Source: an uncultured Candidatus Binatia bacterium (GTDB lineage Bacteria; Desulfobacterota; Binatia; UBA9968; JAJDTQ01). Taken from it: a stretch of DNA of 64,000 nucleotides. The stretch spans positions 107,449 through 171,448 of the forward strand of contig CBDBFB010000004.1 of the NCBI GenBank assembly GCA_965204505.1, read 5' to 3'. Below, piece after piece: positions 2,469 through 23,710 of the stretch (the stretch's first letter is position 1; every line of letters starts with the position of its first letter). Under the pieces are notes generated by a model that made no database searches, was not told where the DNA came from, and saw only the letters and a list, made by a program, of their open reading frames with translations. Made by a program: the position numbers and the translations under genes.

Positions 2469-2843
2469 GCCGGACGGCCGCCGCTGCGCGTTTGCGGGCG
2501 GCCGGCATTCCACCCCTCCCGACAGAATCGCCCGGCGCCACCCGGAGCCCCGTCAACGATCACACACCGCCGTCAGATTTCCGACTCCGCCGGGACGGAA
2601 ACCCGGCTCATCACGGTCGCCGGTCTTGAGGACGCCGGGATCGTCCTTGCATCGGCCGACCCCGGCCCGGGCGCCCCGGAACCGGGGTCTGCCGATGCCC
2701 CGATGCCTGAACCGCCCCCACAGCCACGACCCCGCTGCGACACCTGCGCCGGGAAGCGATTCCCCGGCACTCATTTTGCACTACCCGATCCCCGATGGGG
2801 CCAGAGGCCGGATCGGACGGCTCCGGCCGGGAAAGAGGACGCC

Positions 2844-3425: not shown

Positions 3426-3742
3426 CCAGTCAGCATTCCGCCGGCCCGCCGCCGGCCACGCATCCGATGGACCCGCGCCGCGGCCGGGACCTCTCGCCCA
3501 TGTTCAGCGCATTCCTTTGCTGGCTTCTGGATATCGAACCCATGACCAGCCCGGCCATCACTAACATCGCCGTCTCCGGCAACTGCGTGCTGGCCGCGAC
3601 CGACCAAAACCCGCTGTTCGACCAGCATCTCGGGTCCCTGGACGACTTCGAGGCGAACGTCCGCGGCTGGGGCGAAGCCTGCGGCGCCGATGCCGGCATG
3701 GTCGAAAGGCTCGTCGCCCGCATGAGGAGGACAGACCGATGA
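3422..3742 (+). CDS. hypothetical protein, ATGA-overlapped with radC stop
   Basis: ATG at 3422 overlaps the radC TGA. 106 aa in GC-biased codon usage, translationally coupled. Confidence 0.45.
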   Translation: MTSQHSAGPPPATHPMDPRRGRDLSPMFSAFLCWLLDIEPMTSPAITNIAVSGNCVLAATDQNPLFDQHLGSLDDFEANVRGWGEACGADAGMVERLVARMRRTDR

Positions 3743-4047
3743 GCTTCCCCGAGCTTCCCGAAGACTACGACCGCCACAAGGACGCACTTGCCATCGTCGA
3801 TCCCGGCGCGGCGAACCCGTCCGGCGTGGCCCGCGCCATCCACCAGGCATGTACGCAGGTGATCCACGAGGGCGGCAACCAGCGGGAGGACCCCGCCGTC
3901 CGCCTCATGACCACGCAATTGGCTTTCCTCGTCCAGGGCAATTCCGATCTCGACCTCGATGAGTACCGCCGGCTGATGGACGCCTGCCGAGCCCGTGCGG
4001 CCGAACGAAGGGACGCCCCCAGCCACAACGCCACCGCCCCCGCCTGA
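3739..4047 (+). CDS. hypothetical small protein (leading-region module)
   Basis: ATGA overlap with the previous ORF. 102 aa with no recognisable motif. Confidence 0.45.
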   Translation: MSFPELPEDYDRHKDALAIVDPGAANPSGVARAIHQACTQVIHEGGNQREDPAVRLMTTQLAFLVQGNSDLDLDEYRRLMDACRARAAERRDAPSHNATAPA

Positions 4048-4188
4048 TCCTCCGCACATCTGCTCCACGCCGCGAGGAGCCCGGGCAGCCGGTCGAAGTC
4101 AGGCCGCGGGCGCGGCGCGGGAGGTTTTCCTTCATCCCACGCCGCGTCCCGGCACTCTCACGCAATTCGATCCAGGAGGGAGAGATCC

Positions 4189-7100
4189 ATGCTCGACGCC
4201 CATACGGCGGCGGATGCGTCCGCGCGCCTTCCCGTTCCCCGCACCCTTCCTTCCGTCCCCGCCGCCCCGGGCCCCGAGCCTTCCGCCCATGACGCGCTGT
4301 TCACCGCCGCCACAACCCTGTTGCCGGTCCTGGAGGCCGGCCGGGCGCTCGACGCCCCGACCCTGCGGGACGCCATGACACGCGCCTTCGGCGCAAGCGA
4401 TGCCCAAGGCGCCTGGGTCTGGAAAGACGCCTACGAGGCCGCCGAGGCCGCGGTCGTGCTGTTCATCCGCCGCCATGGCCGGGCCATGCGCCGCCACGCC
4501 GGAGCCGGTCCGGAAGGACCCCTCGCCATGCTCAGGATGCTGGAGGCCGTGGCCGCGCTGGAGCCGTCCCACACGAAGCGCTCGGAAGAGCAGGTGCGCC
4601 TGCAGCAGTTCTCGACGCCCCTGCCGCTGGCCTATGCGGCGTTGCAGGCCGCGGCGATCCGGCCGGGAGACGTCGTGCTGGAGCCGTCGGCGGGCACCGG
4701 CATGCTGGCGGTGATGGCGGAATGCGCACTCGGGAGCCGGGCTGCGGGGAACCTCCATCTGAACGAGATCGCGGACGTCCGCCGCGCCCTCCTGTGCCGC
4801 CTGTTCCCCGAGACCCTGGTCACCAGCGTGAACGCGGAGAACGTCGCCGACCGCTTGCCCGGCGCCCGGCCCACCGTTGTCATCATGAACCCGCCGTTCT
4901 CCGCGACGCCGGGCGTCCACCGCATCCGCCACGACGCCGACCTCCGGCACCTGCGCTCCGCTTTCTCCATGCTGCCGCCGGGCGGCCGGCTCGTGGCCGT
5001 CACCTCGGCCAACTGCATTCCGGGCGATTCCGACTGGGATGCCGCCTTCGGACTCCTCGATCCGCCCGCCCGCGTCGTCTTCACCATGGCCGTGGACGGC
5101 CGCGTCTACGCGCGCCGGGGCACCGGCTTCGACACCAGGCTCACCGTGCTCGACCGCACGGACCAGGCCGGCGTCGACGTCGATCCCGGCGCCCGCGCCG
5201 AGAACGCCGCCGAGCTGCTCGACGCCGTCATCGCCGGGGTTCCGCCCCGGATGCCGGTGGAAGTACGAACCATCGGGGCAGCGCCCGACCGGGACCTCTT
5301 CGGCCACGCGGCCATGCCGCGCCCGTCGAAGCAAAAGACCGCGTCCACCGTATCCGCGCCAGCGCATGACTGGGGATCGGTGTCCGAGCTGATCGTGGAG
5401 ACCGGCACGGCGGAGGTTGCCGCAGACGCCGGCAACTCCGTCTCCGGACCCTACGAACCCTGGCGGCCGGGCGCCTTCCGGATTCCGGGCGCAACCGCGC
5501 ATCCGACGCCCCTGGTGCAGTCCGCGGCAATGGCCGCCGTCCCGCATCCGGCGCCATCCTACCGCCCCTTGCTGCCGGAACGCGTCGTGGCGGACGGCCT
5601 CCTGTCCGACGCCCAGCTCGAAAGCGTCGTGCTGGCGGGCCAGGCCCACGAGGGCCATCTCGCGGCGAGCTACCGCATCGGCTCCGGCTGGGAGACCGTC
5701 CAGCGCTGCGGCGACGAGGACCAGGACGAGGCCGCCCTCACCGACGAAGGCGAGACCCTGTCGGTGCCGGTCCGCTTCCGCCGCGGCTGGATGCTGGGCG
5801 ACGGCACCGGCTGCGGCAAGGGACGCCAGGTGGCGGCGATCATCCTCGACGGCTGGCTCCGCGGCCGGAAGCGCGCGCTTTGGCTGAGCCAGTCCGACAA
5901 GCTCCTGGAAGACGCGCGCCGCGACTGGACCGCCCTGGGCGGACGCGAGGACGACGTGGTCCCCCTCGGCAACTTCCGCCAGGGGGACGAGATCCCCCTC
6001 TCCACCGGCATCCTGTTCACGACCTACGCCACGCTGCGCTCGCCGTCCCGCCAGGGGCGGGCCTCACGGCTTGACCAGATCGTAAGCTGGCTCGCCGGAG
6101 GACCCGACGAGGACGACCGCCATGCCTTCGACGGCGCCATCGTCTTCGACGAGGCCCACGCCATGGCCAACGCCGCCGGCGGCAAGGGCGCGCGCGGCGA
6201 CGTGAAGCCGTCCGCCCAGGGACGCGCAGGGCTGCGTTTGCAGAACGCGCTACCCGACGCCCGGATCACCTACGTGTCGGCCACCGGCGCCACCACCGTG
6301 CCCGGACTGGCCTACGCCGGCCGTCTGGGGCTGTGGGCAGCCGGCGAAACGCCGTTCGAGACGCGGATCGACTTCGTGTCGGCCATGGAAGCCGGCGGCG
6401 TCGCCGCCATGGAGGTGGTCGCAAGGGACCTGAAGGCGCTCGGCCTGTATCAGGCCCGCGCACTGGCCTACCACGGCGTCGAGGTGGACATCCTCGTCCA
6501 CGAGCTCTCCGAGGAACAGCGGCGTATCTACGATTCCTATGCAGGCGCGTTCAAGGTCATCCACGCCAACATCGAAGCAGCGCTGGAGGCCACGGGCATC
6601 ATGCAGGAGGGTTCCACTCTCAACAAGAACGCCAAGTCCGCCGCGCTGAGCGCCTTCGAGAGCACCAAGCAGCGCTTCTTCGGCCATCTCCTGACGGCCA
6701 TGAAGTGCCCTTCGCTGATCCGCGCCATCCAGGCAGATCTCGACTCCGGCCGGTCCGCCGTCATCCAGCTCGTATCCACGGGCGAGGCGCTGATGGAGCG
6801 GCGCATCGCCGAGATACCGGCGTCGGAATGGGACGATCTCGGCATCGACCTGACGCCCCGCGAGGCCGTCCTCGACTTCCTGGCCCACGCCTTTCCCGTG
6901 CAGTTGCAGGAACCCTACACCGACGGCGACGGGAACCTGATGAGCCGTCCCGCGGTCGACGCCGAGGGCCATCCGGTCCTCTGCCAGGAAGCGCTCGCGC
7001 AGCGCGACGCGCTCCTGGAGCAACTCGCGTCCCTGCCGCCGGTGCCCTCGGCCCTGGACCAGGTGGTCCAGCACTTCGGCCACGAGGCCGTGGCGGAGGT

Positions 7101-8661
7101 GACAGGCCGCTCCCGCAGGGTACTCCGCATTTCGGACGCGGGCGGCGAACGCCTGGCGCTCCGCAGCCGGCCGGCATCCGCCAATCTCGCCGAGACGGCC
7201 GCGTTCATGGAGAAGAGCAAGCGCATCCTCGTGTTCTCCATGGCCGGGGGCACCGGGCGGAGCTATCACTCGGACCTCTCGTGCCCGAACACCGAGCGCC
7301 GGGTCCACTACCTGCTGGAGCCGGGCTGGCGCGCCGATCAGGCCATCCAGGGACTGGGCCGCACCCACCGCACGCACCAGGCCTCGGCGCCGCTCTTCCG
7401 GCCGGTCACCACGGACGTGAAGGGCGAGCGGCGGTTCATCGCCACCATAGCCCGGAGGCTGGACAGCCTGGGCGCCATCACCCGCGGGCAGCGCGATTCC
7501 CAGACCGCCATGGGCGGCAGCGACGCCACGCTGTTCCGCGAGAGCGACAACCTGGAGAGCCTCTACGCGAAGGCGGCCCTGAGACGGTTCTACCTGGCGC
7601 TCTGGCGCGGAGACATCGCCGGCTGGCCCCTGCAACGCTTCGAGGAGGCCACCGGCCTGAAGCTCACCTGGGAAGGCTCGCTCAAGGAGGACCTGCCGCC
7701 CATGCCGCGCTTCCTGAACAGGCTCCTGGCCCTCCCCATCGACGAGCAGAACCAACTCTTCGCGGAACTGGAGGACCGCATCGCCGCCGGCATCGAGCAG
7801 GCCATGGAGGCCGGGACCTACGAGGTCGGCGTCGAGACCGTGCGGGCCGACTCCCTGGCAGCCGCCGGCCGGGAGACGCTGTACACGCATCCGGGCAGCG
7901 GAGCGGCAACCGAGCTTGTAGAGATCGTGCGCCGGGACAGGTTGGAGCCGACGTCGGCGGACGCAGCGCTCGAAATCGGCAAGGAGACGAACGGCGGTCC
8001 GCATCTGGTGGTCAATGCCAAGTCGAACCGCGCCGCGGTCGTGCTTCCGGCGCCGTCCGGCCTGTTCGACGACGGCGGGGTGCAGGAGCGCGTCCGGCTG
8101 CTGCGTCCCGCCGGGCAGGATACCATGGCGAAGGCCGAGCTCGACGCCTCCAACTGGCGGAACGCGGCCGAAGCCGAATGGAGGACGCTCTGGGAGGACG
8201 AGATCGCCGGCCTGCCGTCGCATCGCGAATCGCGGTTCTGGCTCGCGGCCGGTCTGTTGCTGCCGGTCTGGGACCGTCTGCCGGCCGAGAACATGCGGGT
8301 GCGGCGTCTCAGGACCGACGACGGCGAAGCGCTTATCGGCCGCGTGCTCGATTTCGAGCAGGTCCGCGCCGTGCGTTCCGCATTCGGGCTCGCGGGCGGT
8401 CCCGCCATGACCGGCGCCGAAGCCTTCGAGGCGGTCATGGGACGCGGCGCGGCCCTCGCGCTTGCCAACGGCTGGCGGCTCGCACGCCGCCGCATCATGG
8501 GCGCCGACCGGGTCGAGATCGAGGGACCGGTCGATACCGACACCGCGGTCCTCAAGCGAATGGGCTGCACGGTCGAGATCGTCTCGTGGCGCACGCGCGT
8601 CTTCGCTCCGGGCCCTGATCTCCTCGAACGCGTCATCCAACGCTGGCCCCTCGCCGCCTGA
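4189..8661 (+). CDS. N6-adenine DNA methyltransferase / SNF2 (strawberry-notch-like) helicase fusion protein
   Basis: GGAGGGAGAG RBS. MTase motif I LEPSAGTGMLA and motif IV NPPF. Helicase Walker A DGTGCGKGRQ and DEAH box VFDEAHAM, plus a long C-terminal helicase region. 1490 aa. Confidence 0.85.
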   Translation: MLDAHTAADASARLPVPRTLPSVPAAPGPEPSAHDALFTAATTLLPVLEAGRALDAPTLRDAMTRAFGASDAQGAWVWKDAYEAAEAAVVLFIRRHGRAMRRHAGAGPEGPLAMLRMLEAVAALEPSHTKRSEEQVRLQQFSTPLPLAYAALQAAAIRPGDVVLEPSAGTGMLAVMAECALGSRAAGNLHLNEIADVRRALLCRLFPETLVTSVNAENVADRLPGARPTVVIMNPPFSATPGVHRIRHDADLRHLRSAFSMLPPGGRLVAVTSANCIPGDSDWDAAFGLLDPPARVVFTMAVDGRVYARRGTGFDTRLTVLDRTDQAGVDVDPGARAENAAELLDAVIAGVPPRMPVEVRTIGAAPDRDLFGHAAMPRPSKQKTASTVSAPAHDWGSVSELIVETGTAEVAADAGNSVSGPYEPWRPGAFRIPGATAHPTPLVQSAAMAAVPHPAPSYRPLLPERVVADGLLSDAQLESVVLAGQAHEGHLAASYRIGSGWETVQRCGDEDQDEAALTDEGETLSVPVRFRRGWMLGDGTGCGKGRQVAAIILDGWLRGRKRALWLSQSDKLLEDARRDWTALGGREDDVVPLGNFRQGDEIPLSTGILFTTYATLRSPSRQGRASRLDQIVSWLAGGPDEDDRHAFDGAIVFDEAHAMANAAGGKGARGDVKPSAQGRAGLRLQNALPDARITYVSATGATTVPGLAYAGRLGLWAAGETPFETRIDFVSAMEAGGVAAMEVVARDLKALGLYQARALAYHGVEVDILVHELSEEQRRIYDSYAGAFKVIHANIEAALEATGIMQEGSTLNKNAKSAALSAFESTKQRFFGHLLTAMKCPSLIRAIQADLDSGRSAVIQLVSTGEALMERRIAEIPASEWDDLGIDLTPREAVLDFLAHAFPVQLQEPYTDGDGNLMSRPAVDAEGHPVLCQEALAQRDALLEQLASLPPVPSALDQVVQHFGHEAVAEVTGRSRRVLRISDAGGERLALRSRPASANLAETAAFMEKSKRILVFSMAGGTGRSYHSDLSCPNTERRVHYLLEPGWRADQAIQGLGRTHRTHQASAPLFRPVTTDVKGERRFIATIARRLDSLGAITRGQRDSQTAMGGSDATLFRESDNLESLYAKAALRRFYLALWRGDIAGWPLQRFEEATGLKLTWEGSLKEDLPPMPRFLNRLLALPIDEQNQLFAELEDRIAAGIEQAMEAGTYEVGVETVRADSLAAAGRETLYTHPGSGAATELVEIVRRDRLEPTSADAALEIGKETNGGPHLVVNAKSNRAAVVLPAPSGLFDDGGVQERVRLLRPAGQDTMAKAELDASNWRNAAEAEWRTLWEDEIAGLPSHRESRFWLAAGLLLPVWDRLPAENMRVRRLRTDDGEALIGRVLDFEQVRAVRSAFGLAGGPAMTGAEAFEAVMGRGAALALANGWRLARRRIMGADRVEIEGPVDTDTAVLKRMGCTVEIVSWRTRVFAPGPDLLERVIQRWPLAA

Positions 8662-9893: not shown

Positions 9894-10085
9894 ATGTTCG
9901 GTAACAATTTCGACCTTGAGGACACCCTGACCGGCAGCGACCTGCTGGCCGAGATCGGGCTCCACCCCGGCGCCATCCAGGACGTCATCGACGAGAACCA
10001 CGCCATACGCTGTCCCGACCCGCGGGATGCGGCCGGCGGAGATCCTCTCACCGTCACCGCCGCGCTGACCGCCGGAAGGGAGTGA
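9894..10085 (+). CDS. hypothetical small protein
   Basis: AAAGGAGG RBS. 63 aa. Confidence 0.35.
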   Translation: MFGNNFDLEDTLTGSDLLAEIGLHPGAIQDVIDENHAIRCPDPRDAAGGDPLTVTAALTAGRE

Positions 10086-10186
10086 AAGGAGGGCCTGAGA
10101 GAAGTGAACGGAAGGGGCCGGGGAGGGAGGACTCCGGCCTCTCGACGCTCGTCAACCATCGTCACTAACCAGGAAGGAGAATTACC

Positions 10187-10648
10187 ATGAGCTTTGGACT
10201 GAACCGCGTAGAACTGATCGGCCGCCTCGGCGCCGACGTCACCGTCAACCACCTGACCAGCGGCGGCCGCGTCGCCAACATGAGCATCGCGACCGACGAG
10301 TCGTACATCAGCAAGCAGACCGGCGAGCGGGTCGACAAGACCGAATGGCACCGCGTGGTGACCTTCCAGGAGGGTCTCGTCAACATGCTCGAGAAGCACG
10401 CCCGCAAGGGCCGGCTGGTCTACGTCGACGGCAAGCTCCAGACCCGGCAGTGGTCGAAGCCCGACGAGAGCAGCCCCCGCTACGCGACCGAGATCCTGCT
10501 GGTCCCGGGCGGCGGGGTGAAGTTCCTGGACAAGCCCAACGGCAACGGCGCGCCGGCTGCGGCGAACCCGTCGATGGCGGCGGGCGACGCGGCCATGCAG
10601 GACGCCGGCGCCTCGTCCCAGCCCGTGGACGACGACATCCCGTTCTGA
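10187..10648 (+). CDS. ssb: single-stranded DNA-binding protein
   Basis: OB-fold N-terminus (RVELIGRLGADV...TEWHRVV), a Gly/Ala-rich linker and the canonical acidic tail DDDIPF. Confidence 0.95.
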   Translation: MSFGLNRVELIGRLGADVTVNHLTSGGRVANMSIATDESYISKQTGERVDKTEWHRVVTFQEGLVNMLEKHARKGRLVYVDGKLQTRQWSKPDESSPRYATEILLVPGGGVKFLDKPNGNGAPAAANPSMAAGDAAMQDAGASSQPVDDDIPF

Positions 10649-10650
10649 TA

Positions 10651-12155
10651 TGGATTGACCCTGTCAAGTTGCTACAGGGTAGTTGAGATCCTCCCCCCTG
10701 GAAGTGTCGGGGTTGGGGCGCGGCCGACGTTCGCGACGGTGGATCACTCTGATATCCGTGGGTTGGTTACCACCTGACTTCACTTCGTCGCGGAGCTGCC
10801 TCACTCTGAAAACGTGGGTTCACCAGTCCTTTTGGGACCGGCCCCTCACAGAACGGCCGAGGGTTCTCCTCACCGGCCGACCACGCCCCGATCCCGACAC
10901 TCCTCTTGCTTCATGTACTCACCGGACCGATACGCGAGCTCAAGCCGCGGCGCGGGACGCGTGCGGCAGGCCGTTGACCTCGCGTGCGATGGCCCAGATG
11001 AATCCGACCAACTCGCGCGCCACCGCCGTGGTGACGTAGCACTTGTTCTTGCCGACCTGATACAGATGCAGGTAGCGACCGCACAGCCGCTTTTGCGCTG
11101 CCCAGGCCAGCGCCTGCACCGCCTCCGGCGCCACGGACGCCTTCTGCCTCATGTACTTGGTCTTGCGTGCCGGGAAGCGATAGCCCCAGGCCGACTCCAC
11201 CAGCAGCCGGCGTACATGGCCGTTGCCGGCCTTGGTGATCGCACCCGGGCGCCGCCGGTCTCCCGAAGAGCGTTCGCTCGGCACTAGGCCGAGGAAACTC
11301 ATCAACTGCCGCGGCGAGTCGAAGCGGGTGAGATCGCCCAGTTCGGCCAGCACCGTGATCGCCGTGATCCGGTTCACGCCCCGCAGACTGATCAACGCCT
11401 CGACCGTCGGACGTAGCGACCACGAAGCCGCCGCCTCAAGCATCTGCTGCTCCACACCATCCAGGCGAGCCTGCGCCTGCTGCACCGTGTCGACGTATTC
11501 CTGGAACACCACCTGCTGAACCGGTTGCTCAAACGCCTGCTGCTCCAACCAGCCAAAATACGGCTTCGTCCAACGGCAACGCCCCGGGAACACCCGCTCG
11601 TGGCGCAACAAGAAAGCGCTCAGCCGCTGCCGGGCCTTCTGCTGTATCGCCAGCATGTCCTCGCGTGCGCGCGTCAGATCCCGCATCGCCTCCTGATCCT
11701 CGTCCGGCACCCACACTGGCGTCAGATCGCCCGAACGGTGCAGGCGCGCCAACGCCACGGCGTCGCGGCGATCCGTCTTCACCCGATCGCCCGGCTTGCG
11801 CGGAATCAGGCTCGGCGCCACCACCGCGCAGGCGTGACCGCTTTCCACGATCTCCCGGTACACCCCGTATCCGCATGGCCCGGCCTCGTAACAGAAGCTC
11901 AGCAGCTTCCCATCCGGGCTCAGCCGGCCGATCAAACGCCGGAGCGACCCGCGTTGATTGCGAATCTCGCCCCGGTACACCGGATCCTGGCGGCCCGGTT
12001 CCGCGATCGCAACCGCAATGGAGTCCTTGTGAACGTCCAGTCCTACGTACGCGCTATACTCCGTCATGGCCTGCCCTCCTCAATAGTGGCTCTTTCTCAC
12101 GGTTCCAGCGTCGAGCATAAACCACCTCGCCCGAGTCGAGGACCAGGTCAATCCA
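10651..12155 (-). mobile_element. IS110-family insertion sequence (~1.5 kb) with short terminal inverted repeats
   Basis: tggattgaccctg at 10651-10663 is the near-perfect reverse complement of caggtcaatcca at 12144-12155. The pair flanks the transposase ORF. The element sits between the ssb stop and a terminator hairpin. Confidence 0.55.
10940..12067 (-). CDS. IS110-family (DEDD) transposase
   Basis: N-terminus MTEYSAYVGLDVHKDSIAVAI is the IS110 RuvC-like DEDD_Tnp signature. 375 aa. Confidence 0.9.
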   Translation of the reverse strand: MTEYSAYVGLDVHKDSIAVAIAEPGRQDPVYRGEIRNQRGSLRRLIGRLSPDGKLLSFCYEAGPCGYGVYREIVESGHACAVVAPSLIPRKPGDRVKTDRRDAVALARLHRSGDLTPVWVPDEDQEAMRDLTRAREDMLAIQQKARQRLSAFLLRHERVFPGRCRWTKPYFGWLEQQAFEQPVQQVVFQEYVDTVQQAQARLDGVEQQMLEAAASWSLRPTVEALISLRGVNRITAITVLAELGDLTRFDSPRQLMSFLGLVPSERSSGDRRRPGAITKAGNGHVRRLLVESAWGYRFPARKTKYMRQKASVAPEAVQALAWAAQKRLCGRYLHLYQVGKNKCYVTTAVARELVGFIWAIAREVNGLPHASRAAA

Positions 12156-12194
12156 TGATGTCTGATACTCCTCCGCTTCGTTTCCTCCCACCCT

Positions 12195-12229
12195 GGGGAC
12201 CGGCGCCTCGTGTGCCGGTCCCTTTTTTT
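12195..12229 (+). terminator. rho-independent terminator-like hairpin plus T-run, probably the displaced ssb operon terminator
   Basis: gggaccggcgcctcgtgtgccggtccc followed by ttttttt, immediately right of the IS110 right end. Confidence 0.5.
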
Positions 12230-12335
12230 GCAGCCTGTCCCGAGCAAGGACCCTCCGGGCATCGCGTCCTCGCGTCGCTCGGCCCGCTCGCCCTCCGGGG
12301 CAGCCGGGTGTCCCGTCCCGTGAAGGAGAACCGCC

Positions 12336-13251
12336 ATGCACTACGGTCCGTCCCCAGCCTCCGCGGTCGCCGCGGCGCTTGCAGCGCGCGCCGAAGAGGT
12401 CTGCCAGCGCTACCTCCCCCACGGCCGCCGCCAGGGCCGCTACTGGGTCGCGGGCGACATCGACGGCGCCCGCGGCCGCTCCCTCTTCGTCCGCCTCCAC
12501 GGCCCGGGCGCGCCCGGGAAGTGGACCGACGCGGCCGTGGGCAGCCACGGCGACCTGCTCGACATCATCCGCCACCGCACGGGCGCGCCGACGCTCCGCG
12601 CGGCGCTTGCCGAAGCGCGCGCCTTCCTCGCCCTGCCGGCTTCGCCGGCCAAGGGCGATGCAGGCGACTACGACGCCGCCGAAGCGGCGCGGCGCCTGTG
12701 GCGGGGATGCCGCGCCATCGACGGCACCCACGCGGAGAAGTACCTGCTCGCCCGGGGGCTCGCGCGCTGCCGGTTCCCGGCGCTGCGCTTCCACCCCGAG
12801 CTTCGCTACCGCGAAGGCTCCTCCGTCATCCGCCTCCCGGCGCTAGTCGCCGCCGTGACCGGCGACGACGGCGCCGTCTTCGGCGTGCACCGCACCTGGC
12901 TCGATCCCCGCCGTCCGGCCAAGGCCGGCGTCGCCTCGCCCCGAAAGGCCCTCGGCGACATCCGCGGCCGTGCCGTGCGCTTCGGCATGCCCGCCGGCGA
13001 TGTCGCTACGCTCCTCGTCGGCGAGGGCATCGAGACCGTGCTGTCGCTGGTCACCGCCGTGCCCGACATCTCCGCGGCCGCAGCCCTCTCCGCCGGCAGT
13101 CTCGGCTCCTTCTCGCCCCCGCCCGCCTGCCGCCGCCTCGTCATCGCCCGCGACAACGACTTCGAGGGCGCATGGGCCGCCGAACGCCTCGCCCGGCGCT
13201 GCGCGCGGGCGGGCGTCGAGGCCGCGGTCATCGTCCCCCAGGGCGGAGACT
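12336..13251 (+). CDS. toprim-domain DNA primase, exon 1 (interrupted by an antisense group II intron)
   Basis: Toprim-like body ...LLVGEGIETVLS...ARDNDFEGAWAAE... The frame runs to ...VIVPQGGD, after which the sequence becomes intron. Confidence 0.7.
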
Positions 13252-13308
13252 ACTGCGGTAGGAACGCCGGTTGCCCGGCGCCCCCCCGCTCAGATCCGGA
13301 CGTGCCCG

Positions 13309-16300
13309 CTAAGGCATCCGGCTCCTCCCTTGGGTACCGCCCCGCATGGCGCTGACGGCAAATCGTTTGTCCGGCCACGGGTGTCGGATTTCCAGCCTGG
13401 GCCAGTGAGCCACCACATGGCGTGCGATGTCGGCCCAGTTCGAGCGGTCCTTCTGCGACCGTCGGCGTAGCGTTCGCAGCCACAGCCGCTTCAGGCGGGT
13501 GGCAAAACGGTAGAGGTATCGGTAGCTGGTCGGGACCGCATAGTAGTTGAGCCATCCGTCGAGCACCTTCCCCAGCCATCTCGCCATTGCTTTGGGTTTG
13601 CAATGCATCCGTCTGCGTAACCCCTCCTTGATCCGCTTCAGTGTCCGGCTCATCCGTTTCGCAACCGGCTTGCGCCCCACCTGAAAGCGCCCCAGTCTGT
13701 TCTCCGTGCAGTAGTGCGTGAAGCCCAGGAAGTCCAAGGTCTCCGGTCTGCCCTGCCCTCGTTGCCGATGGCTTTTGACGGCAAACCGCCCGAACTCAAT
13801 GAGTCGGGTCTTGTCGGGGTGCATTGCCAGTTCAAAACTCTCGAACCGCTCCTTTACGGCACTCAGGAAGCGCTCCGCGTCCCGCTTGTGCTGAAAACCC
13901 ACCACGAGTCGAGTAGCCGAGGGGAATTTCACCCCTCGGCCCTCCCAGAACCGGACGTGAGACTCTCGCCTCATCCGGCTCCTACCCTCCAGCCTCAGAC
14001 ACCGGCTCCTCCCATCTCTGGTTGGCCTCCATCCTTGGCCAGAGGGTCGGGTCCCTTCGCTCCGCCCGCATTGCCGGGCTTCATCGCTAATACGGACCCG
14101 TCCGTCCCTGTGCTCCGCTTCGGTACTCGGCTCCTTGCGGTTCTTCCGCTTGGAGGTCTCCCTTGGCATCGGAGCTCCAGGTTCCCACGTTCCGCACAAG
14201 AGCCTCTCGCTGGTCTCACGCCGCCTTCATGCCGGTCGCCGCTCGGCCAGTCAGCAGGCACCCTCCGAGCTCCATCCCAGACCAACGACTGGAGCCTGGT
14301 TTCGGCGACATCTTTACGCTTTCGACACGTCATCAACGGTTCACTTTCGTTCGTCTTACCAGCGCACACCTGACGGGTGATTCCCGCCTTTTCCGCAACG
14401 CTCACCACCCCGGTCGTTGAACCGGAGCAGCTTGCGGTGGTTTGGACCCTGGTCCTGCAACCCGAGTCCGAGGGGCCTTCCCTCATCTCCTGTGCAGCAA
14501 GGCGCTTCAACTCGGCTCTGCTACGTCATCAGAACCTCCTCTCGTCGCCGTCGTGGCGCACCGTCATCGGCGTACCGCACGATGACGGTGTCGCCTCTGA
14601 CCTCGCGGCTGCGCCATTTCTTCTGGAACCACAGGTCGAGGACGTAGTGCAGGTAGACGTTCGCCAATACCGGCGAAACCACCGAGCCTTGAGGCGTTCC
14701 CCGCAGATCGTCCCGCCACTCTCCAGCTTCGTCGGGTAGGACGCTGGCGCGCGCATCCTTAGGTGGAGGCTTGTCCGCTCCCGCTCTTTCGATCGCGGGT
14801 GGGTGCGCAGTTCCACCATAGACCACGTTTCCAGCATCCCCCCTGAAATTCCGTACGTCCGGTTTTCCCGGGTACGGCTTCAAGCACCAGGCACCCCTTC
14901 AGGAGTTCGGTACGGCGTCTTCCGCGATACCCGCCACGGTTAAGGCTGACCCGGCCATGCCCGTGCAGACACCCGCGTTTACGCCGTCCTTCGACCGTGC
15001 CGCATATCGCCGTGGAGGCCGGTTTCTGTGCACCGGCAGACCAGCCATACGCCACACGGTCACCTAGGCCCAGAGGTCCTCGCTCAGGGCCGGTTATGTT
15101 GTCCAGCCCGTCAACGCTTAATCGACCTCATCCGCCAGTCAGGAGGACTCCGCGTCCTTTCCCGTTATCCGGTTATGGACGCGGTCCTTGACATTCAAGG
15201 GTCACAACATCCTGTCTGTCCTCCTCACCTTCCGGACTTTCACCGCTGAACTTTCCCGGATTGCCGCCGTCTGTACGCCGGGGGACCCGATGCGTGCATT
15301 CCTCAGTTCCTTCCGCATCGGTTCTAGCCATCGGGACGTCATGAATCCCTTGGCATCCACCAATTACCCCCACAAGTCAGCTTCGATGCGGGGAACGCCG
15401 TTTTCGACGCTTCGGACGACTGTTCGCTTTCGCTACGGCCCTCCGGTTTGCTCGCCCTCCAACTGACCTGGACCAGAAGTGAACAATCTCTCACCCGGCC
15501 CACAAGGGCTTTTACTTCCCTGCTTTACAGGCAGCAGGTCGCCCTGTTGCCTGCGGGATATGACTACGACGCCAAACTGAGAATTGCGCCGGCGGGACTT
15601 TCGCCCGCGAGTTCAGCAGCTAGTCTCGCTGCACCATGACGCCGGCGCTCAACCACTTGATGATGAGCCTGATGACCCGCTTGTCCCCGATGCGGTGCTC
15701 CAGGAACCGGATCAGCCAGTCCCTTGACACGTTGTCGAAGAATGCGCGGATGTCACAATCCACCACCCAGTTGATCTTGCGCCGTTTTAACCCGACCGTG
15801 AGCGCATCGAGCGCATTGTGCGGTCCACGCCCTGGCCGGAACCCGTAGCTGAACCCCAGGAACTCCGCCTCATAGATCGGCGTCAGGATTATCTCCGTCA
15901 CCGCCTTCTGGACTATCTTGTCCTCGATGGCCGCGACGCCGAGCGGTCGTGTGCCGCCATCAGGCTTCGGTATGTTCACCCGCCTTGATGGCGTCGCCCG
16001 GTACGCTCCCGAGTGCACGCGGTCGTGAAGGTCGGCCAATCGGCCTTCCAGCCCTTCCTCGTACTCCCGCCACGTCACGCCGTCCGCGCCTGCCGCAGCG
16101 TCTTTCTTCAGTTCGAAGAATGCCCAGCGCAGCGCATCAACCGTGACATGGTGAAGAAGCGCCGTCAGACGCTCCCGTGGTTCCCGTTGAACGAATTGCC
16201 GTATCCGGTCAGCCGCCTGTGTCACGCTTTCCCGGTCCTGCGCCCGGCGCGTGCTTTGGCTTCCCGGATTCCCCTTGGGCTCGGTCCTTCGCTCCATCGA

Positions 16301-16381
16301 CTCCGCCGGGACCACGGCCCCTTTGTTCGCCGACTTCTCAGCTAATATGACCGAGTCTGACTTCTCCATGCCGTGCATCAT
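13309..16381 (-). CDS. group II intron-encoded reverse transcriptase/maturase (RT0-7 plus X, no En domain), in three segments split by nested introns
   Basis: Segments: 16381..15635 (RT0-3, ending ...IKWLSAGVM), 14730..14562 (EAGEWRDDLRGTPQGSVVSPVLANVYLH...RYADD), 13907..13309 (VVVGFQHKRDAERF...ETLDFLGFTHY...LNYYAVP...RHPW). The joins are in frame once introns C and B are removed. Confidence 0.8.
13908..14561 (-). mobile_element. nested ORF-less group II intron B (~654 nt) between RT-motif YADD and VVGF of the intron A RT gene
   Basis: 5' GUGCGCCACGACGG follows ...UACGCCGAUGACG. A canonical 34-nt domain V, GAGCCGGAUGAGGCGAGAGUCUCACGUCCGGUUC, with AGC triad, GAGA tetraloop and AC bulge, is at complement 13948-13981. 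Domain VI GGGCCGAGGGGUGAAAUUCCCCUCGGCUACUCGAC ends at 13908. Confidence 0.7.
14731..15634 (-). mobile_element. nested ORF-less group II intron C (~904 nt) inside the intron A RT gene
   Basis: Starts GUGCAGCGAGACUAGCUG right after ...GGCGUCAUG. It ends ...CGUCCUACCCGAC. The exon join gives AGVM|EAGEW. A domain V-like hairpin CCGUAC-CCGG-GAAAA-CCGG-AC-GUACGG is at complement ~14847-14882. Confidence 0.6.
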
Positions 16382-16735
16382 CGGTTACGGATTCCTCCTT
16401 TCTTCAGCGACCCCGCCACGACAGCGGGATGGCATGGAGACCTCCCAGGTCCCGGTGCTGTGCGTACGTACGTGCCTGGGTTCTTAGACACCGCGGGATT
16501 CCAGCCCCCCTCGCCATATCGGTGAGCTGGATGCTGCCTTCGGCCCATTGAAAAGCCTCGGCATCCCGGACACGTCTCTTTCGGTGCTCAATAGCCCCGC
16601 CCGCACGCGCCCCTGTCAACGCTTAACCCCCATCCTCACGGATGACGGCCCATGACTCGGGGTGGAAGTGGTGGCTTGCCTTTCTTTCCCGCCGGACTTT
16701 CACCGGCTGCACTGGCACCAGTTTGCCTGGCGCAC

Positions 16736-16830
16736 TCAACGACGACCTCGCTTCGCTCGGCGCCGATGTCCTCGCCGCAAGGTTCGCTCCGCTCTTCCGC
16801 TCCGCTGGAGCCGGAGAGGAGCGGGCCTGA
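16736..16830 (+). CDS. toprim primase, displaced 3' segment (restores ...GGDFNDDLASLGADVLAARF...)
   Basis: Joining 13251 to 16736 gives gga gac ttc aac gac gac ctc. This is the canonical toprim C-terminal DFNDxL motif, in frame to the stop at 16830. Confidence 0.65.
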
Positions 16831-16863
16831 GCAGGCGAAGTCTTGACGAGAGGAGGGAGAGTA

Positions 16864-17198
16864 TGGACGCCGTCATCAACCTCAGGCGCGAACCCGCGCT
16901 CCGCGACATATTCGAGCACGCGGACGTGCACAACAACACCGTCCTCATCGACCGCCGCACCAAGTGGGGCAACATGTTCCGCATCGGGCCCGACGGGACC
17001 CGCAGGCAGGTCGTCGCGCTCTACCGCGCCGACCTCTGGGAGCGCATCCGCTCGGGCGAGATCACGTTCGAAGAACTCGCCGAACTGGACGGCATGTGGC
17101 TGGCCTGCTGGTGCGATCCCCAGCCTTGTCACGGACACGTGCTCGCCCGCGCCGCGGCGTGGGCCGCAGCCGCACTGGCCGAAAGGAGGGGCGGGTGA
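16864..17198 (+). CDS. DUF4326-family protein
   Basis: GAGGGAGAG RBS. ...NVHNNTVLIDRRTKWGNMFRIGPDGTRRQVVALYRADLW...LACWCDPQPCHGHVL matches the DUF4326 pattern (WGNPF...C.C....CH). Confidence 0.7.
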
Positions 17199-17200
17199 TG

Positions 17201-17425
17201 GGCAGCGTGACCTTCAAGCGGATCACCCCGCACGAGTCCCGCATCTACGACGACGACGGCGACCATGTCGGCGATGTCTACCGCCACGACGACATCCTCG
17301 CACCCGGCCGCGCCTACTACGTCGTAGTTCTGTTTGAAGATCCCCGCGGACCCAGGCGCGTCCACGACCGCGGCCGCATCCGCGACGTCGCACAATCCCT
17401 CCTCGATTCCCACCCTCTGTTCTGA
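17201..17425 (+). CDS. hypothetical small protein (TGATG overlap with previous)
   Basis: 74 aa, translationally coupled to DUF4326. Confidence 0.35.
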   Translation, partial: GSVTFKRITPHESRIYDDDGDHVGDVYRHDDILAPGRAYYVVVLFEDPRGPRRVHDRGRIRDVAQSLLDSHPLF

Positions 17426-17872
17426 ACGCTTCCGCTGCAACTCCCGGATTATTGGGGCCAGCTTCGGCCTACACCTTCGTTCCGGCCTCTCCTGATTCCT
17501 CCCTTCGCTTCGCCCCCTCCGCCCAGGCCACAGGACCCCTCTCCTCTCCCCAGGCCCGATCCCCGGTCTCCCTGCCGAGCGAGAACCATCTGTGGCCCGC
17601 CAAGCCCTCGGCACCTCCCGGCCTGTTCCTGCCGGGCTCCGCCCGGTTGGATGCCTCGTCCACCGCACCCGGAGATACTCCACAGTAGGCCCTCCCTCCG
17701 TCTCGTCCCATCGTAGCACGCCGTCAACCCCCTCCTTCGTCGGGGGTCCTCCGCTTCGCTCCGGCGCAACCCCGCCCCAGGGCCCCTCCGCCCCGCGTGA
17801 CTGGCCGTGCTCCAACGGGACGAGACGGAGGGAGTTCCTCCACTGGCGGGCGATACGGGAAAGGAGAAGGCG

Positions 17873-19339: not shown

Positions 19340-20580
19340 TCTCAGCGTCCTCCTTGAACTGAAACGTCCTGCCGCACACACGGCTCGCCGCCTTCGGCGA
19401 CATCGCCGCACTCGCGCCGCCCGCCTCGCTCCGCTCGTCGTCGGCGCGCCCCTCCGCATCCGCGTCGCCGGTGCGGGCTTCGCCCCACACCGGCTCCCGC
19501 ACCACCGCTGACGCCGCTGCCTGCGTTTCCGGCAACGTGCTCCGCACGTCTGCCGTCACCGCCAGGCACAACCTTCGCGCCGCCGCTCGCTGACGCTCCC
19601 GGCGCGCTTCGCACGTCTCAACCCCGCATCGTACACTTGCCGCGCTTCAATGTCGTTCACCTCATTGCGCTCGCCATCGGCACAGACCCCCCTCCACGGC
19701 CCATGTCGCCGAGGACCCGCTTCGCGCCTCCCCTACGCCACTCGGCGACGCGGGCCTTCCCCCCTCCGTCGGACCGGTCCGTCCTTCCTGCGGCGCGCCG
19801 CCGGTGCACGCTTCCCCCGTCACCAGCTTCCACTCCCCGCCGTCCTCGGTGTCTGCACCACTGCGGACGCCCCGGCCGGTGCTTCCGGCAACGTGCTTCG
19901 CACGTGTGCCATCAGCGCCGTCCGCAGTGACCACTACTCAATCGCCATTGCCCGTTGACGGATTCTGTCGAGCCCGCTGCGCGGTCTCGCCTCTCCCGCC
20001 CGGCATCCCTCGCGCCGCCGCTCGCTGACGCTCCCGGCGCGCTTCCCACGCATCAACCCCGCATCGTACACTTGCCGCGCTTCAATGCCGTTCACCTCAT
20101 TGCACTCGCCATCGGCACGGACCCCCCGCCGCGGCCCATGTCGCCGAGGACCCGCTTCGCGCCTCCCCTGCGCCACTCGGCGACATGGGCCTTCCCCCCT
20201 CCGTCGGTCCGGTCCGCTCTTCCTGCTTCGCGCCGCCAGCACGGGCACCGCCGTCACCAGCTTCCGCATCATGTCCTGCTCCGGTGTCCGCGCCTCCGTC
20301 ACCGTGCTCCGCACGCATCCCGTCAGTTCCTTCAGCGCAGCTCGCCGCACTCGCGCCTTCCGCCTCGCTACGCTCGTCGGCACCCGCTTCCGCACCACGT
20401 CCTGCACTCGTGTCCGCACTACTGCGGACGCCTCTGCCGTCGCCTCCCGCAGCGTGCTTCGCACGACTGCCCTCAGCTCCTCCGCACGGACCCCCACTCA
20501 GTCGCCGTGGCGGCTCCCCTCCGCCGGGTCCGCCGGCGCCCATCCCCCCGTCGCTTGAACCCCTGGTTTCTTCGTTCCTG
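19340..20580. repeat. about 2.5 copies of a ~433-bp degenerate tandem direct repeat, non-coding
   Basis: The unit boundary core cgccgccgctcgctgacgctcccggcgcgcttc(g/c)cacg...ccccgcatcgtacacttgccgcgcttcaatg(t/c)cgttcacctcattgc recurs at 19578 and 20011. A partial copy spans 19340-19577. The 433-bp period is not a multiple of 3. Confidence 0.8.
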
Positions 20581-21074: not shown

Positions 21075-21464
21075 ATGGCGCAAAACGATCGCGGAAATCC
21101 GGGAACGGGGAGCAATCCGGCCGGAAAACGGAGCGATGCGCGGCAGCCCCGCTCGATCCGCTTCTCCGATTCCGAGTGGCGGCTGATCGAGAAGGTCGCC
21201 ACTCGGCACGGCGTTCCGGTTGGAGAGCTGGTCCGCGCCGGGGCGCTCGCCATCGCCGAGGACCGGCTCGGCGAGGATACTCCGGCCACGTTGACGCCCG
21301 GACACCTGGCGCTCATCGAGGCCACCTACCGCTCGGTCTACATGATGGCCACGCTCAAGCGAGACGAATTGCTCGACGCCGAACGGCATGAGGAACTCCA
21401 TCGCTTGGTCGCAGCGGCCCGCAAAACGATGGCGGAGACCATGGACGAAGGGCCCGGAAGTTAG
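21075..21464 (+). CDS. MobC-like ribbon-helix-helix relaxosome accessory protein
   Basis: AGAGGA RBS. ...RSIRFSDSEWRLIEKVATRHGVPVGELVRAGAL... is the MobC/RHH pattern (R..vRlt..E...l...A...G.s.s.l.R). Confidence 0.65.
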   Translation: MAQNDRGNPGTGSNPAGKRSDARQPRSIRFSDSEWRLIEKVATRHGVPVGELVRAGALAIAEDRLGEDTPATLTPGHLALIEATYRSVYMMATLKRDELLDAERHEELHRLVAAARKTMAETMDEGPGS

Positions 21465-21593
21465 TTTGCGTAGATTCGACGATCCGTCCCTGGGTACGGC
21501 AAGCGGACTGACCGCTTTGCACTAATTCACCACGATGTTACCTTAAACGCTGTTCTGCTGCAGGCTAGCGCAATCCGGCGAAAGGGGGTTCCG

Positions 21594-22595
21594 GTGGACC
21601 GCGTCGACTATCAGCCTTTACTGATTCAGGATTTGGTAACTTGGAACAGAAACGGGGAACTTGATCTCGCCCCGTGGTACCAACGCCGCGCCGTCTGGAC
21701 CACCGCACAAAAGGCTTACCTCGTAAACACTTTGTTCGAGCGAAAGCCCGTGCCAACCCTGTATTTCCGTCACGCTATAGATCTCGACGCCGACAAGACT
21801 GTCCGCGAGGTGGTCGACGGCCAACAACGGATCCGCGCTGTACTCGAGTATCTCGCCAATGAGTACGCGGCACGCCACCCTCAACATCCCCGTCGACTGG
21901 TTTATTCGAAACTTACCCGCCCACAACAGGAAGCTTTCCGCGAGACTGCTCTCTCCGGCGGTTGGTTACTTGGCGCTACAGACCAGGACGTAATTGAAGT
22001 CTTCGGCCGCCTGAACTCCGTATCCAAGACCCTAAACGCATCTGAGAGTCGCAACGCGAAGTATGGCGGCGAGTTCAAACAATTCTGCTTGCGGCACGCC
22101 GCCAATCGCGTCGCCATGTGGCGTGACCTCAACATTTTCACCGCGAATGACATCGCCCGAATGTTGGAGGTCCAATTCCTCGCTGACTTGTGCCTCAATC
22201 TCATGCATGGCCTAAGCGACTACAGCGCCGCCAGACTCAACAACCTCTATAAAGATAACGATGACGAATTCGAAGAAGCGGACTACATTGAGCGCCGTTT
22301 AGAGCGTTGCTTCGCACGCGTGGCCGAACTCCCCAAGGACGCCATTTTTGACACGATATTCCGCCGGCAACCAGTTTTCTTCTCACTAATTGTCGTTCTC
22401 GACAGCCGTAAGAGCCTTCCCGCCAGCAACCGACTTGCCACCGTCCTTCGTGAGGTCGACGCCCGATACAACTCTGACGTCCCGCTGCCTGATCGGCCAC
22501 CTAGCGACGCAGCGTTCTACGAAGCCTGCCGAGCTAGCACACAACGCTTGAAAAACCGCCGTACGCGTCACGACTATATCGCGTCTTTTCTGTAG
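21594..22595 (+). CDS. DUF262 (ParB/Srx-fold, GmrSD N-terminal-like) domain protein
   Basis: DGQQR motif (VVDGQQRIRAV). About 333 aa. The local GC is markedly lower than in the surroundings. Confidence 0.8.
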   Translation: MDRVDYQPLLIQDLVTWNRNGELDLAPWYQRRAVWTTAQKAYLVNTLFERKPVPTLYFRHAIDLDADKTVREVVDGQQRIRAVLEYLANEYAARHPQHPRRLVYSKLTRPQQEAFRETALSGGWLLGATDQDVIEVFGRLNSVSKTLNASESRNAKYGGEFKQFCLRHAANRVAMWRDLNIFTANDIARMLEVQFLADLCLNLMHGLSDYSAARLNNLYKDNDDEFEEADYIERRLERCFARVAELPKDAIFDTIFRRQPVFFSLIVVLDSRKSLPASNRLATVLREVDARYNSDVPLPDRPPSDAAFYEACRASTQRLKNRRTRHDYIASFL

Positions 22596-22603
22596 GTCCC
22601 GGC

Positions 22604-23218
22604 ATGTCACCTAGCCTGCGCCCACAGCTTCGGCGCACTCTCACCGCCACGACCGCGGCTCTGGAACTGACAGACCAATTGGACCAGCCTGTCAATTTTC
22701 CCAAGCACTACATTGCCGAACTAATTCTCCTCCGGATTTTTGCATTTTTCGAATCGGTCGTGGAGGAAATAGCCTGCCGACTTGTCTGCGGTGCCTCATA
22801 CTGCGACGGAAGCAAACCTACTTTGTTGCGAAATCGGCCAACGCGGAGCAACGAGAAGGCGCTTCAGGCGATGCAGAGTTACAACAGGTCGGAGCCACGG
22901 TACCGATTGCGATGGAACCAAGCCAAGGAAATTGCGGACAACCTAGAAACCCTGTTTCCAGAAAACGAACATTTCGTAGCGACGATCCGCAACCACGGGC
23001 AATTGATATCGGACCTGCGAAAGGTCCGAAATCACATCGCACACCGGAACCAGGGCACTTATAAGAAGTTCCAGGAAGTTGTCCTTCGGAGGTATGGAGC
23101 AAGGATTCCAAGTATGACGCCAGGGCGCATGTTGGTTTCGCATCGCTTTTCCCCCAACTTGGTGGAAGAATGGAGTAGAGCTGTTCAGATACTGACTAAG
23201 GCCGCTATTCGAGGTTGA
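22604..23218 (+). CDS. HEPN-like protein (Rx4H motif RNHIAH), partner of DUF262
   Basis: Begins 9 nt after the DUF262 stop. ...LRKVRNHIAHRNQG... fits the HEPN Rx4-6H motif. Low GC. Confidence 0.45.
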   Translation: MSPSLRPQLRRTLTATTAALELTDQLDQPVNFPKHYIAELILLRIFAFFESVVEEIACRLVCGASYCDGSKPTLLRNRPTRSNEKALQAMQSYNRSEPRYRLRWNQAKEIADNLETLFPENEHFVATIRNHGQLISDLRKVRNHIAHRNQGTYKKFQEVVLRRYGARIPSMTPGRMLVSHRFSPNLVEEWSRAVQILTKAAIRG

Positions 23219-23710
23219 CACACCCGGTCGCCGTAGAAGGAATGGTGTCCGAGAGGATGGTTGTAAGGCTTCAGACGGCGACGGAATGCCCTTGGTCACT
23301 GCTCGGTTTGGCACACCACGCCCACTTCCGTTCTATACGAGCTACACCGGCGTCAAGAAGAAAGCTGTCGTGAAGCGGCGGCTCTCACGGCGGCGGCGGG
23401 CTGTTCTTCCCGCATCCGGTCAGTTCGACCCGACTCTGTCCGATCCGCTCCCCTTCCCGTCCTCCACCCGGACAGAGCCGTCCAGGCAGATTCGGGAAGA
23501 GCGGGAGATCGCCCAAAACGGAACAAGACGGTGCCTTCGTGGACGAATGGAAACTCGAGACGGTTTGCCGTAGCTCTCTTTGCAGAAACGACAAACCTCC
23601 TCAACAATTCGAAAGGGGTCGCACCGCAGCTAGCCTGAGAACTCGCAAGCCCTCATCTGGAAGCGCATAGCGCCCGGAAATGGAGGAATGGAGACGGCGA
23701 CAGGCCTCGC

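Follow-up and report, generated by a model that had tools for sequence, protein, structure and literature searches.

The window analyzed here, a 64,000-nucleotide stretch of DNA from an uncultured Candidatus Binatia bacterium, begins with an integrative conjugative element in which the gene for a DnaG-like Toprim protein, a putative primase by domain and fold similarity, is interrupted by a group II intron on the opposite strand. This outer intron (intron A) itself contains two smaller introns, B and C. The initial annotation, made from the letters alone, had described a Toprim primase gene split by an antisense intron whose removal recreates the canonical C-terminus. The Toprim domain is confirmed (Pfam Toprim_3), whereas "primase" can be said of the protein by domain and fold similarity only; the split, the strand and the restoration all hold. 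Sequence comparison adds to that account that the insert is a three-intron nest and that the insertion is not a one-off event. The parts of the gene and of the outer intron are as follows.

12336-13251, plus strand: toprim/primase-like gene, 5' part; codons 1-305 and the first base of codon F306 (Pfam DUF7146 and Toprim_3)
13252-13355, plus strand: read-through tail; 34 codons of unrelated sequence (YCGRNAGCPAPP...AWR), then a stop; antisense to the intron 3' end
16736-16830, plus strand: 3' part of the toprim/primase-like gene, from the second base of codon F306 through N307-A336 to the stop
13252-16735, minus strand: composite group II intron insert of 3,484 nucleotides (nt); outer intron A is 1,926 nt without B and C; 5'-GUGCGCC...CCUACCGCAGU-3'
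16479-16700, minus strand: intron A domain I-IV core; Rfam group-II-D1D4-6, full model, 184 bits (gathering score 49), E 7e-54
16546-16551, minus strand: intron A exon-binding site 1 (EBS1), UCAAUG, at intron positions 185-190; pairs with intron-binding site 1 (IBS1), and the loop varies in sister copies at other targets
16736-16741, minus strand: IBS1, CGUUGA; the six bases that close the 5' exon on the intron strand, antisense to codons (F)ND and complementary to EBS1
13252-13326, minus strand: probable domains V and VI of intron A; sub-threshold Rfam Intron_gpII match and minimum free energy (MFE) fold, the latter placing a bulged branch-point A seven nt from the 3' end

The interrupted Toprim gene and its intact relatives

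In its present state the open reading frame (ORF; 12336-13355, plus strand, 339 aa) has a DUF7146 domain at residues 114-216 and a Toprim_3 domain at residues 226-305, the latter match breaking off at position 84 of the 95 in the Pfam profile. When nucleotide 13251 is joined to 16736, translation yields a 336-aa DUF7146-Toprim_3 protein ending in ...VIVPQGGDFNDDLASLGADVLAARFAPLFRSAGAGEERA before the stop, in which Toprim_3 is covered from position 2 to 95 and the score rises from 67.8 to 80.0 bits. The nearest database proteins are likewise 336 aa long and 88-92% identical across 99-100% of the query. Other in-frame joins (13248, 13254, 13257) were rejected, as they disagree with the homologues and with intact DNA and give a lower Toprim_3 score. 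The interruption falls within an invariant DFNDD motif, as originally proposed, in alignments of 18 and 75 homologues: D305, F306 and N307 never vary, conservation of D308/D309 is 90% or higher, and E230, D273 and D275 are invariant among the 75. The short frame 16736-16830 does belong to the Toprim C-termini, with 30 of its 31 residues the same as in the intact homologue P0003, and the read-through tail is carried by no homologue in the alignment.

Two syntenic loci, L001 and L002, carry intron-free alleles (positions 6001-7011) with 92% and 90% nucleotide identity to the window gene, and alignment with them confirms the uninterrupted target. Both are collinear with the window gene up to 13251 and again from 16736; in the BLAST comparison with the syntenic locus of L002, the alignment stops exactly at 13251 and picks up at 16736. 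Their junction reads GGCGACT^TCAACGACGACCTC (TCAACGACGACC in short form; the caret marks the insertion point here and below), without an indel, and the joined window DNA differs from them there by a single synonymous GGA/GGC change. The insert therefore comprises exactly positions 13252-16735, placed after the first base of codon F306 without duplication or deletion, and such an exact restoration of the gene on excision is far beyond chance. The caution of the initial annotation that the boundary might be off by 1-2 nt can be dropped, given these alleles and intron relatives that end in ...CCGCAAU.

A feature of the uninterrupted gene may be recorded here: a potential hairpin with a 9-bp stem, GGTCATCGT...ACGACGACC (13226-13234, 16739-16747), would have the insertion point in its 20-nt loop; the codons VIV and NDD flanking the insertion point are near reverse complements.

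A nest of three introns on the opposite strand

Every group II intron signal recognized by Rfam and Pfam within 13252-16735 lies on the minus strand, in agreement with the orientation first assigned. The Rfam matches are D1D4-6 (16700-16479), D1D4-4 (15610-15428), D1D4-2 (14484-14368) and Intron_gpII (13983-13908), together with a second, full-model Intron_gpII match that ends exactly at 13252 (13326-13252), its 32 bits (E 0.0012) falling short of the gathering threshold of 40. Read on this strand, the 5' junction is ...GUCGUCGUUGA^GUGCGCC at 16736/16735 and the 3' junction ...CCUACCGCAGU^AGUCUCC at 13252/13251. The intron begins with GUGCG (16735-16731), which agrees with the consensus GUGYG, but ends in ...CCGCAGU, where the consensus is ...AY; its relatives end in ...CCCUACCGCAAU (CCGCAAU) or in ...CCGCGAU. 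The 3' end is thus unusual, as the initial annotation noted, although not through its terminal U, which is ordinary: the odd base is the penultimate G, where relatives have A. It is best read as an A-to-G point substitution in the window copy and gives no ground for excluding the element from the group II introns.

The MFE fold of the last 110 nt of intron A contains a domain V-like hairpin with a two-base bulge and a domain VI that bulges out an A, closes with four pairs and leaves three bases free; by manual pairing, the G of the AGC triad in domain V is opposite A, not U. EBS1 (UCAAUG) and IBS1 (CGUUGA) form six base pairs, one of them G-U. Without B and C, intron A is 86-90% identical over its full length to uninterrupted relatives of about 1,925 nt. 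Its intron-encoded protein (IEP), a reverse transcriptase (RT) and maturase, is itself interrupted twice.

13309-16381, minus strand: intron A RT/maturase ORF in three pieces (16381-15635, 14730-14562, 13907-13309); Pfam RVT_1 and GIIM; about 504 aa when joined
14731-15634, minus strand: nested intron B, ORF-less, 904 nt, GUGCAG...CCUACCCGAC; in the IEP ORF at ...AGVM^EAGEW..., a place between RT motifs; Rfam D1D4-4 at 15610-15428
13908-14561, minus strand: nested intron C, ORF-less, 654 nt, GUGCGCC...GGCUACUCGAC; in the RT motif YADD^(F/V)VVGF; D1D4-2 112.6 bits, Intron_gpII (domains V-VI) 60.3 bits

The first piece of the IEP ends in ...KWLSAGVM directly before GUGCAGCG at 15634, the second (...EAGEWRDDLRGTPQG...VIVRYADD) directly before GUGCGCC at 14561, and the third starts with (V)VVGFQHKRDAERF at 13907. 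Homologous IEPs read ...AGVME(D/A)GEWRD... and ...RYADDFVVGFQ... at these two places, and the ends of introns B and C are thereby fixed: removal of B restores GVMEAGEW as in the homologues, and removal of C gives RYADDVVVGFQHK, where the homologues have YADDFVVGFQ. An alternative 3' end for intron B at 14760 was rejected, as it makes the IEP 10 residues too long compared with its homologues, whereas 14731 fits. The rebuilt IEP aligns end to end with homologues of 500-504 aa at 85-89% identity, some of which are named group II intron RT/maturase, and Pfam finds no endonuclease (nuclease) domain on its pieces. Intron A is therefore a nest of three introns, and excision of B and C rebuilds a continuous IEP ORF.

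Both nested introns have the marks of group II introns in their own right. A loop in each can pair with the adjoining 5' exon (CAUGACGUC with GGCGUCAUG in B, GUCGUUGG with CCGAUGAC in C), domain VI of each folds with a bulged A, and the ends, GUGCAG...GAC and GUGCG...GAC, are canonical; domains V and VI of B fold, and the 3' fold of C is laid out as that of intron A, with three closing pairs instead of four. At the C junction the rebuilt IEP reads YADDV, while all homologues have YADDF, and the last base of the 5' exon of C is G rather than the U that would pair with the A before its EBS1-like loop. Searches of the window and the fetched loci with BLAST and nhmmer turned up no other copy of B or C, except for a 55-nt match to C (78%) at 53387-53441.

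The window holds a separate and apparently intact intron, D (52985-54965, plus strand; GUGCGCC...CCAGUCCUCGAC), with a 458-aa IEP at 53442-54818 (RVT_1 and GIIM) and Rfam matches to D1D4-4 and Intron_gpII; it begins 9 nt past the stop of a second IS110-family ORF (51375-52976). The last 160 nt of intron B, including an unusually long domain VI insertion, are 72% identical to the last 160 nt of intron D, whose protein is a candidate trans-acting maturase for B. As to intron A, its penultimate G and an IEP that can be translated only after B and C have been spliced from an antisense transcript suggest that the window copy is poorly mobile or immobile.

Probable inactivation of the host gene and recurrence of the site

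Group II ribozymes are strand-specific. The primase mRNA carries only the complement of the intron, so splicing cannot repair it. As the initial annotation recognized in its reading ...GGDYCGRNAG..., the present ORF continues into the insert, as YCGRNAGCPAPPRSDPDVPAKASGSSLGYRPAWR, and reaches a stop after 34 codons. The 339-aa product predicted from this ORF keeps D305 and loses FNDD, with 34 unrelated residues in place of everything past D305. The intact homologue P0003, as modelled by AlphaFold2, has strand beta-4 (295-299) followed by GGD and then by two closing helices (306-313 and 315-326), which are the part cut off by the insert. The interrupted allele is most probably a null. Gene callers have given similar read-through Toprim products, 326-364 aa long, at analogous loci elsewhere; Toprim genes of this length annotated beside an opposite-strand RT gene in such elements should be regarded as interrupted alleles.

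The same site is occupied in other elements. The nearest IEP, P0121 (87% identical), is encoded in contig L003 beside an antisense Toprim gene, with junctions ...GGUCGUCGUUGA^GAGCGCC and ...CCGCAAU^AGUCGUUGCC. The position is that of the window insertion, in a primase only 75% identical in protein to that of the window. A metagenome scan for the 5' junction brought five more contigs, all with an intron of the intron A family. In four of the five, the antisense of the 5' exon translates into Toprim C-termini (FNDDIVALG, FNDDLVALG, FNDDLRAFG), and in one of them, L018, the 501-aa IEP is intact and the primase ORF is intact after removal of the intron. In the fifth, L021 (493-1144), an ORF-less derivative of about 650 nt, made up of the first 546 and the last ~82 nt, lies at a non-Toprim site with the 5' exon GGUCGUCGUUGA; it adjoins an ORF that resembles, judged by eye, an S24/LexA-type peptidase. 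For a further IEP cluster, P0125 (84%), an antisense Toprim gene lies alongside in seven of the eight places among those listed (from ENA, JGI and one NCBI metagenome-assembled genome). The eighth, L034, ends before the gene and is the same as contig L019, which also has an antisense Toprim gene.

The junction ...TCGTC(G/A)TTGA^G(U/A)GCGCC...CCGCAAU^AGTC is common to L003, L017, L018/L019/L031-L037 and L020, whose host Toprim genes have about 70-75% protein identity to that of the window, and in every copy at the Toprim site an EBS1 of UCAAUG, UUAACG or UCAACG pairs with CGUUGA or CAUUGA. These comparisons favor the antisense of DFNDD as a recurrent homing site of the intron, occupied in at least four further primase alleles. 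When 185,579 species genomes were scanned for this 5' junction, three matches came up, none of them like the intron or the primase, and they were put down to chance.

Some variation among the copies deserves mention. Most copies at the Toprim site start with GAGCG rather than GUGYG (U2 to A), including L018 with its intact IEP; among the sites, GAGCG is found at L003:1628, L017:1515, L018:883, L019:2546, L020:263 and in L030-L037, while the window copy and L021 start with GUGCG. In L017 (1906-3940) and L020 (from 654 onward), the intron has a further insertion of about 2 kb that starts (G)UGUGCUGGGCAGCGCC near intron position 390, close to IEP codon 10, and is probably another nested group II intron. 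At L030:2148 (GCA_026713265.1), the 3' exon is as in the Toprim allele of L031-L037 and the 5' exon is different (antisense FNDDLDVDGK...), a mismatch that suggests rearrangement or recombination at the intron.

Sister copies that are 86-90% identical have other EBS1 loops and lie at other, matching targets. The EBS1 loop GUCUUU is matched to ...GGGGC^ or ...A(G/U)GGC^C(G/A) at the base of terminator-like hairpins, GC-rich and palindromic, in either orientation (L004-L013, introns 3646-5571, IEP P0135); the hairpins of this sublineage sit between conjugative-element genes, and one 493-kb contig, ctg123170, has at least four copies. An EBS1 of UUCAUA goes with UAUGGA^A in antisense within IS66 transposase genes (L022-L029, introns 2144-4070, IEP P0122, 85%), where the insertion site is ...GGGGUCGAUAUGGA^AGUAGACC, a second case of antisense homing into coding sequence in the same intron family. 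Three EBS1/target pairs in one family of 85-90% identity should be useful for retargeting studies of endonuclease-less introns.

Proposed course of events, known systems and element context

It is highly probable, in our judgment, that an endonuclease-less group II intron retrohomed in antisense into the DnaG-like Toprim gene of the integrative conjugative element, was nested by introns B and C, and most probably inactivated the gene. The bacterial intron would have entered the minus strand of the element at the antisense of the invariant GGD-FNDD, with EBS1 UCAAUG paired to the CGUUGA that directly precedes the insertion point, splitting codon F306 after its first base. Afterwards, in an order of events that we infer, the ORF-less introns B and C would have homed in the same orientation into the RT ORF of the outer intron, one of them in its YADD active-site motif, to give the 3,484-nt three-intron nest. 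Translation of the primase would since run 34 codons into the insert, the 339-aa product being most probably inactive, and an IS110 element has also landed just upstream of the gene.

A single ancient insertion, with all interrupted Toprim genes descending from one element and the recurrence due to vertical inheritance, would account for the identical junction and similar EBS1 of all copies at the Toprim site, and L031-L037 are clearly one element in different samples. We nevertheless consider it improbable. In the three pairwise comparisons of the window, L003 and L018, four-fold-degenerate sites have diverged by 0.14-0.17 in the IEP and by 0.31-0.38 in the primase (Fisher p 3e-6 to 3e-4, at most 2.6e-4), so that the intron ORF has about half the synonymous divergence of its host gene. 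The two closest primase alleles are without the intron, while alleles only 70-75% identical have it; the ORF-less derivative follows the same 5' exon, GGUCGUCGUUGA, at a site that is not in a Toprim gene; and EBS1 covaries with the target in the sister lineages. Repeated homing into already diverged primases is favored because of the low IEP divergence, the intron-free state of the two nearest alleles and the shared site. Non-specific ectopic retrotransposition, or an assembly chimera, that reached the gene by chance is scarcely credible: bacterial group II introns do retrotranspose ectopically and have many copies in mobile DNA (PMC4424553), but the same junction is found on independent contigs from ENA, JGI and one NCBI metagenome-assembled genome, EBS1 and IBS1 match over 6 bp, and the excision is clean to the base.

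That the gene still functions, either because the N-terminal 305-residue product is active with its foreign tail or because the C-terminal 31 residues, started from an ATG at 16642, complement it, also appears quite improbable. Both halves have intact reading frames, the product retains E230, the D273-N-D275 motif and D305, and a 62-aa ORF (16642-16830) finishes with the native C-terminus. This ORF, however, has no family match and lies inside antisense intron sequence; the strong conservation of F306 to D309 among the 75 homologues and the predicted removal of the last two Toprim helices speak against an active product, and the IS110 element parts the gene from ssb.

Several points weigh against our preferred reading of retrohoming and inactivation. 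The two gene halves remain about 92% identical in protein to the intact alleles, with neither stops nor frameshifts; for this reason the insertion may be recent, or the N-terminal product may keep some function. Loss of primase activity is a deduction from the altered product. Confidence in the P0003 model is moderate (mean predicted local distance difference test score 64; 65-89 in the Toprim part), and the Foldseek matches behind the DnaG-like assignment are weak: in the PDB, 2au3, the DnaG primase of Aquifex, comes first (E 2.7e-4), with further DnaG catalytic cores behind it. EBS2 and IBS2 of the window copy form four of five pairs, in an ambiguous assignment. Constraint on RNA structure or codons, and not later acquisition, could account for part of the lower divergence of the IEP at synonymous sites. 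Finally, the ribozyme is a D1D4-6 match in Rfam, and its likeness to RmInt1, discussed below, assigns it neither to class D nor to another Zimmerly class.

The comparison with RmInt1 of Sinorhizobium meliloti, which targets ISRm2011-2, draws in part on general background. As RmInt1 is described (PMC8914252, PMC5010178, PMC4424553), the two share an IEP with RT and X domains and no endonuclease (En) domain found, target recognition by EBS/IBS pairing, and residence in mobile DNA in many copies, some of them inactivated. Unlike that of RmInt1, the homing site here is the antisense strand of conserved catalytic-motif codons in a conjugative-element Toprim gene, and since the site lies in antisense inside a gene, every homing event breaks the host gene irreparably. 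Ll.LtrB, the intron in the ltrB relaxase gene of Lactococcus, lies in the sense direction and has an En domain, and its splicing restores the relaxase, whereas intron A is antisense and no splicing can take it out of the host mRNA. The two are alike in being group II introns that reside in a DNA-processing gene of a conjugative element and spread with the element (PMC6003770, PMC4256276).

Bacterial twintrons exist, and in Methanosarcina acetivorans introns in the same orientation are nested by site-specific homing into other introns (PMC4424553); B and C, which lie in the RT ORF of A, each with a loop complementary to its own 5' exon, resemble them. The nest differs from those twintrons in belonging to a bacterial conjugative element, in having its outer intron antisense within a protein gene, and in comprising three elements one level deep; unlike in Methanosarcina, recurrent homing of B or C finds no support in the window or the fetched loci. 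The Toprim protein shares Toprim_3, the GEGIE glutamate, the DND motif and the C-terminal acidic motif with DnaG-type and conjugative-plasmid Toprim proteins. It differs from DnaG-type primases in that its profile has no meaningful sequence match in the PDB, to a solved primase or otherwise, and that no zinc-ribbon domain was detected.

Most bacterial group II introns lie outside housekeeping genes, and many copies are inactivated (Zimmerly and Semper 2015, PMC4424553). Introns without En use primers at the replication fork, and three target specificities are known, namely homing sites, terminators and attC (PMC4424553); the present intron uses the homing-site mode. What is less usual is that its site is the antisense of a catalytic-motif codon block, a sister lineage likewise occupying IS66 transposase genes. 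Searches of the available literature, the coverage of which is incomplete, brought up no group II intron reported from a toprim or primase gene. The locus offers a clean natural example of a group II intron as a purely gene-disrupting retroelement, with a defined, conserved and strand-specific site in a conjugative-element replication gene, and a bacterial case of introns homing into the RT gene of another intron. Homing into conserved motifs is usually explained by splicing, which spares the host gene any harm. In the present case splicing offers the gene no rescue, so persistence must rest either on a dispensable primase or on spread that outpaces loss.

More tentatively, and in our estimate rather unlikely, the intron lineage might be a specialized parasite of conjugative elements that chooses the antisense coding strand (Toprim GGDFNDD, IS66 transposase), perhaps as an exposed single-stranded lagging-strand or transfer template. 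If so, a conserved catalytic motif would be a durable and widespread landing pad even though every hit kills the gene, and the ORF-less introns nested in the RT ORF would in turn act as hyper-parasites and silence the intron.

The integrative conjugative element takes up the first ~37 kb of the window, with a gene order as in L001 and L002. Apart from the Toprim gene, its features include the following.

4189-8661: Strawberry-notch-type (AAA_34/Helicase_C_4) helicase
directly upstream of the IS110 element: ssb
10647-12167, minus strand: IS110-family insertion; transposase ORF 10940-12067 (Pfam DEDD_Tnp_IS110 and Transposase_20)
DUF4326 gene, assigned by synteny with L001 and L002
17807-18871: YAcAr-family gene, assigned by synteny with L001 and L002
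23711-26656: TrwC relaxase
Type ISP restriction-modification enzyme
36182-37084: tyrosine recombinase

The IS110 element lies between the ssb stop codon and a terminator-like hairpin (12195-12223) ahead of the primase-like gene, and it is absent from L001 and L002. A sigma-70 promoter scan of 10000-17800 gave none on either strand, a result that is uninformative in DNA of 65% GC. Homologues of the Toprim protein below 50% identity, named "toprim domain-containing protein", occur in 433 plasmid records, 244 of them predicted to be conjugative and mostly from Alphaproteobacteria.

Two further segments distinguish the element from that of L002. At 19378-20348, L002 segments of 130-200 bp match two places each, which marks short repeats between the YAcAr-family gene and the relaxase side; at 21458-23720, about 2.2 kb are missing from L002, including an ORF with a GmrSD_N restriction-endonuclease domain (21594-22595). 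The plus-strand GC skew is -0.07 to -0.14 over positions 1-28000 and near zero or positive beyond ~28 kb, a pattern that does not decide which is the lagging or transfer strand. The GC content drops from 0.71 to about 0.64.

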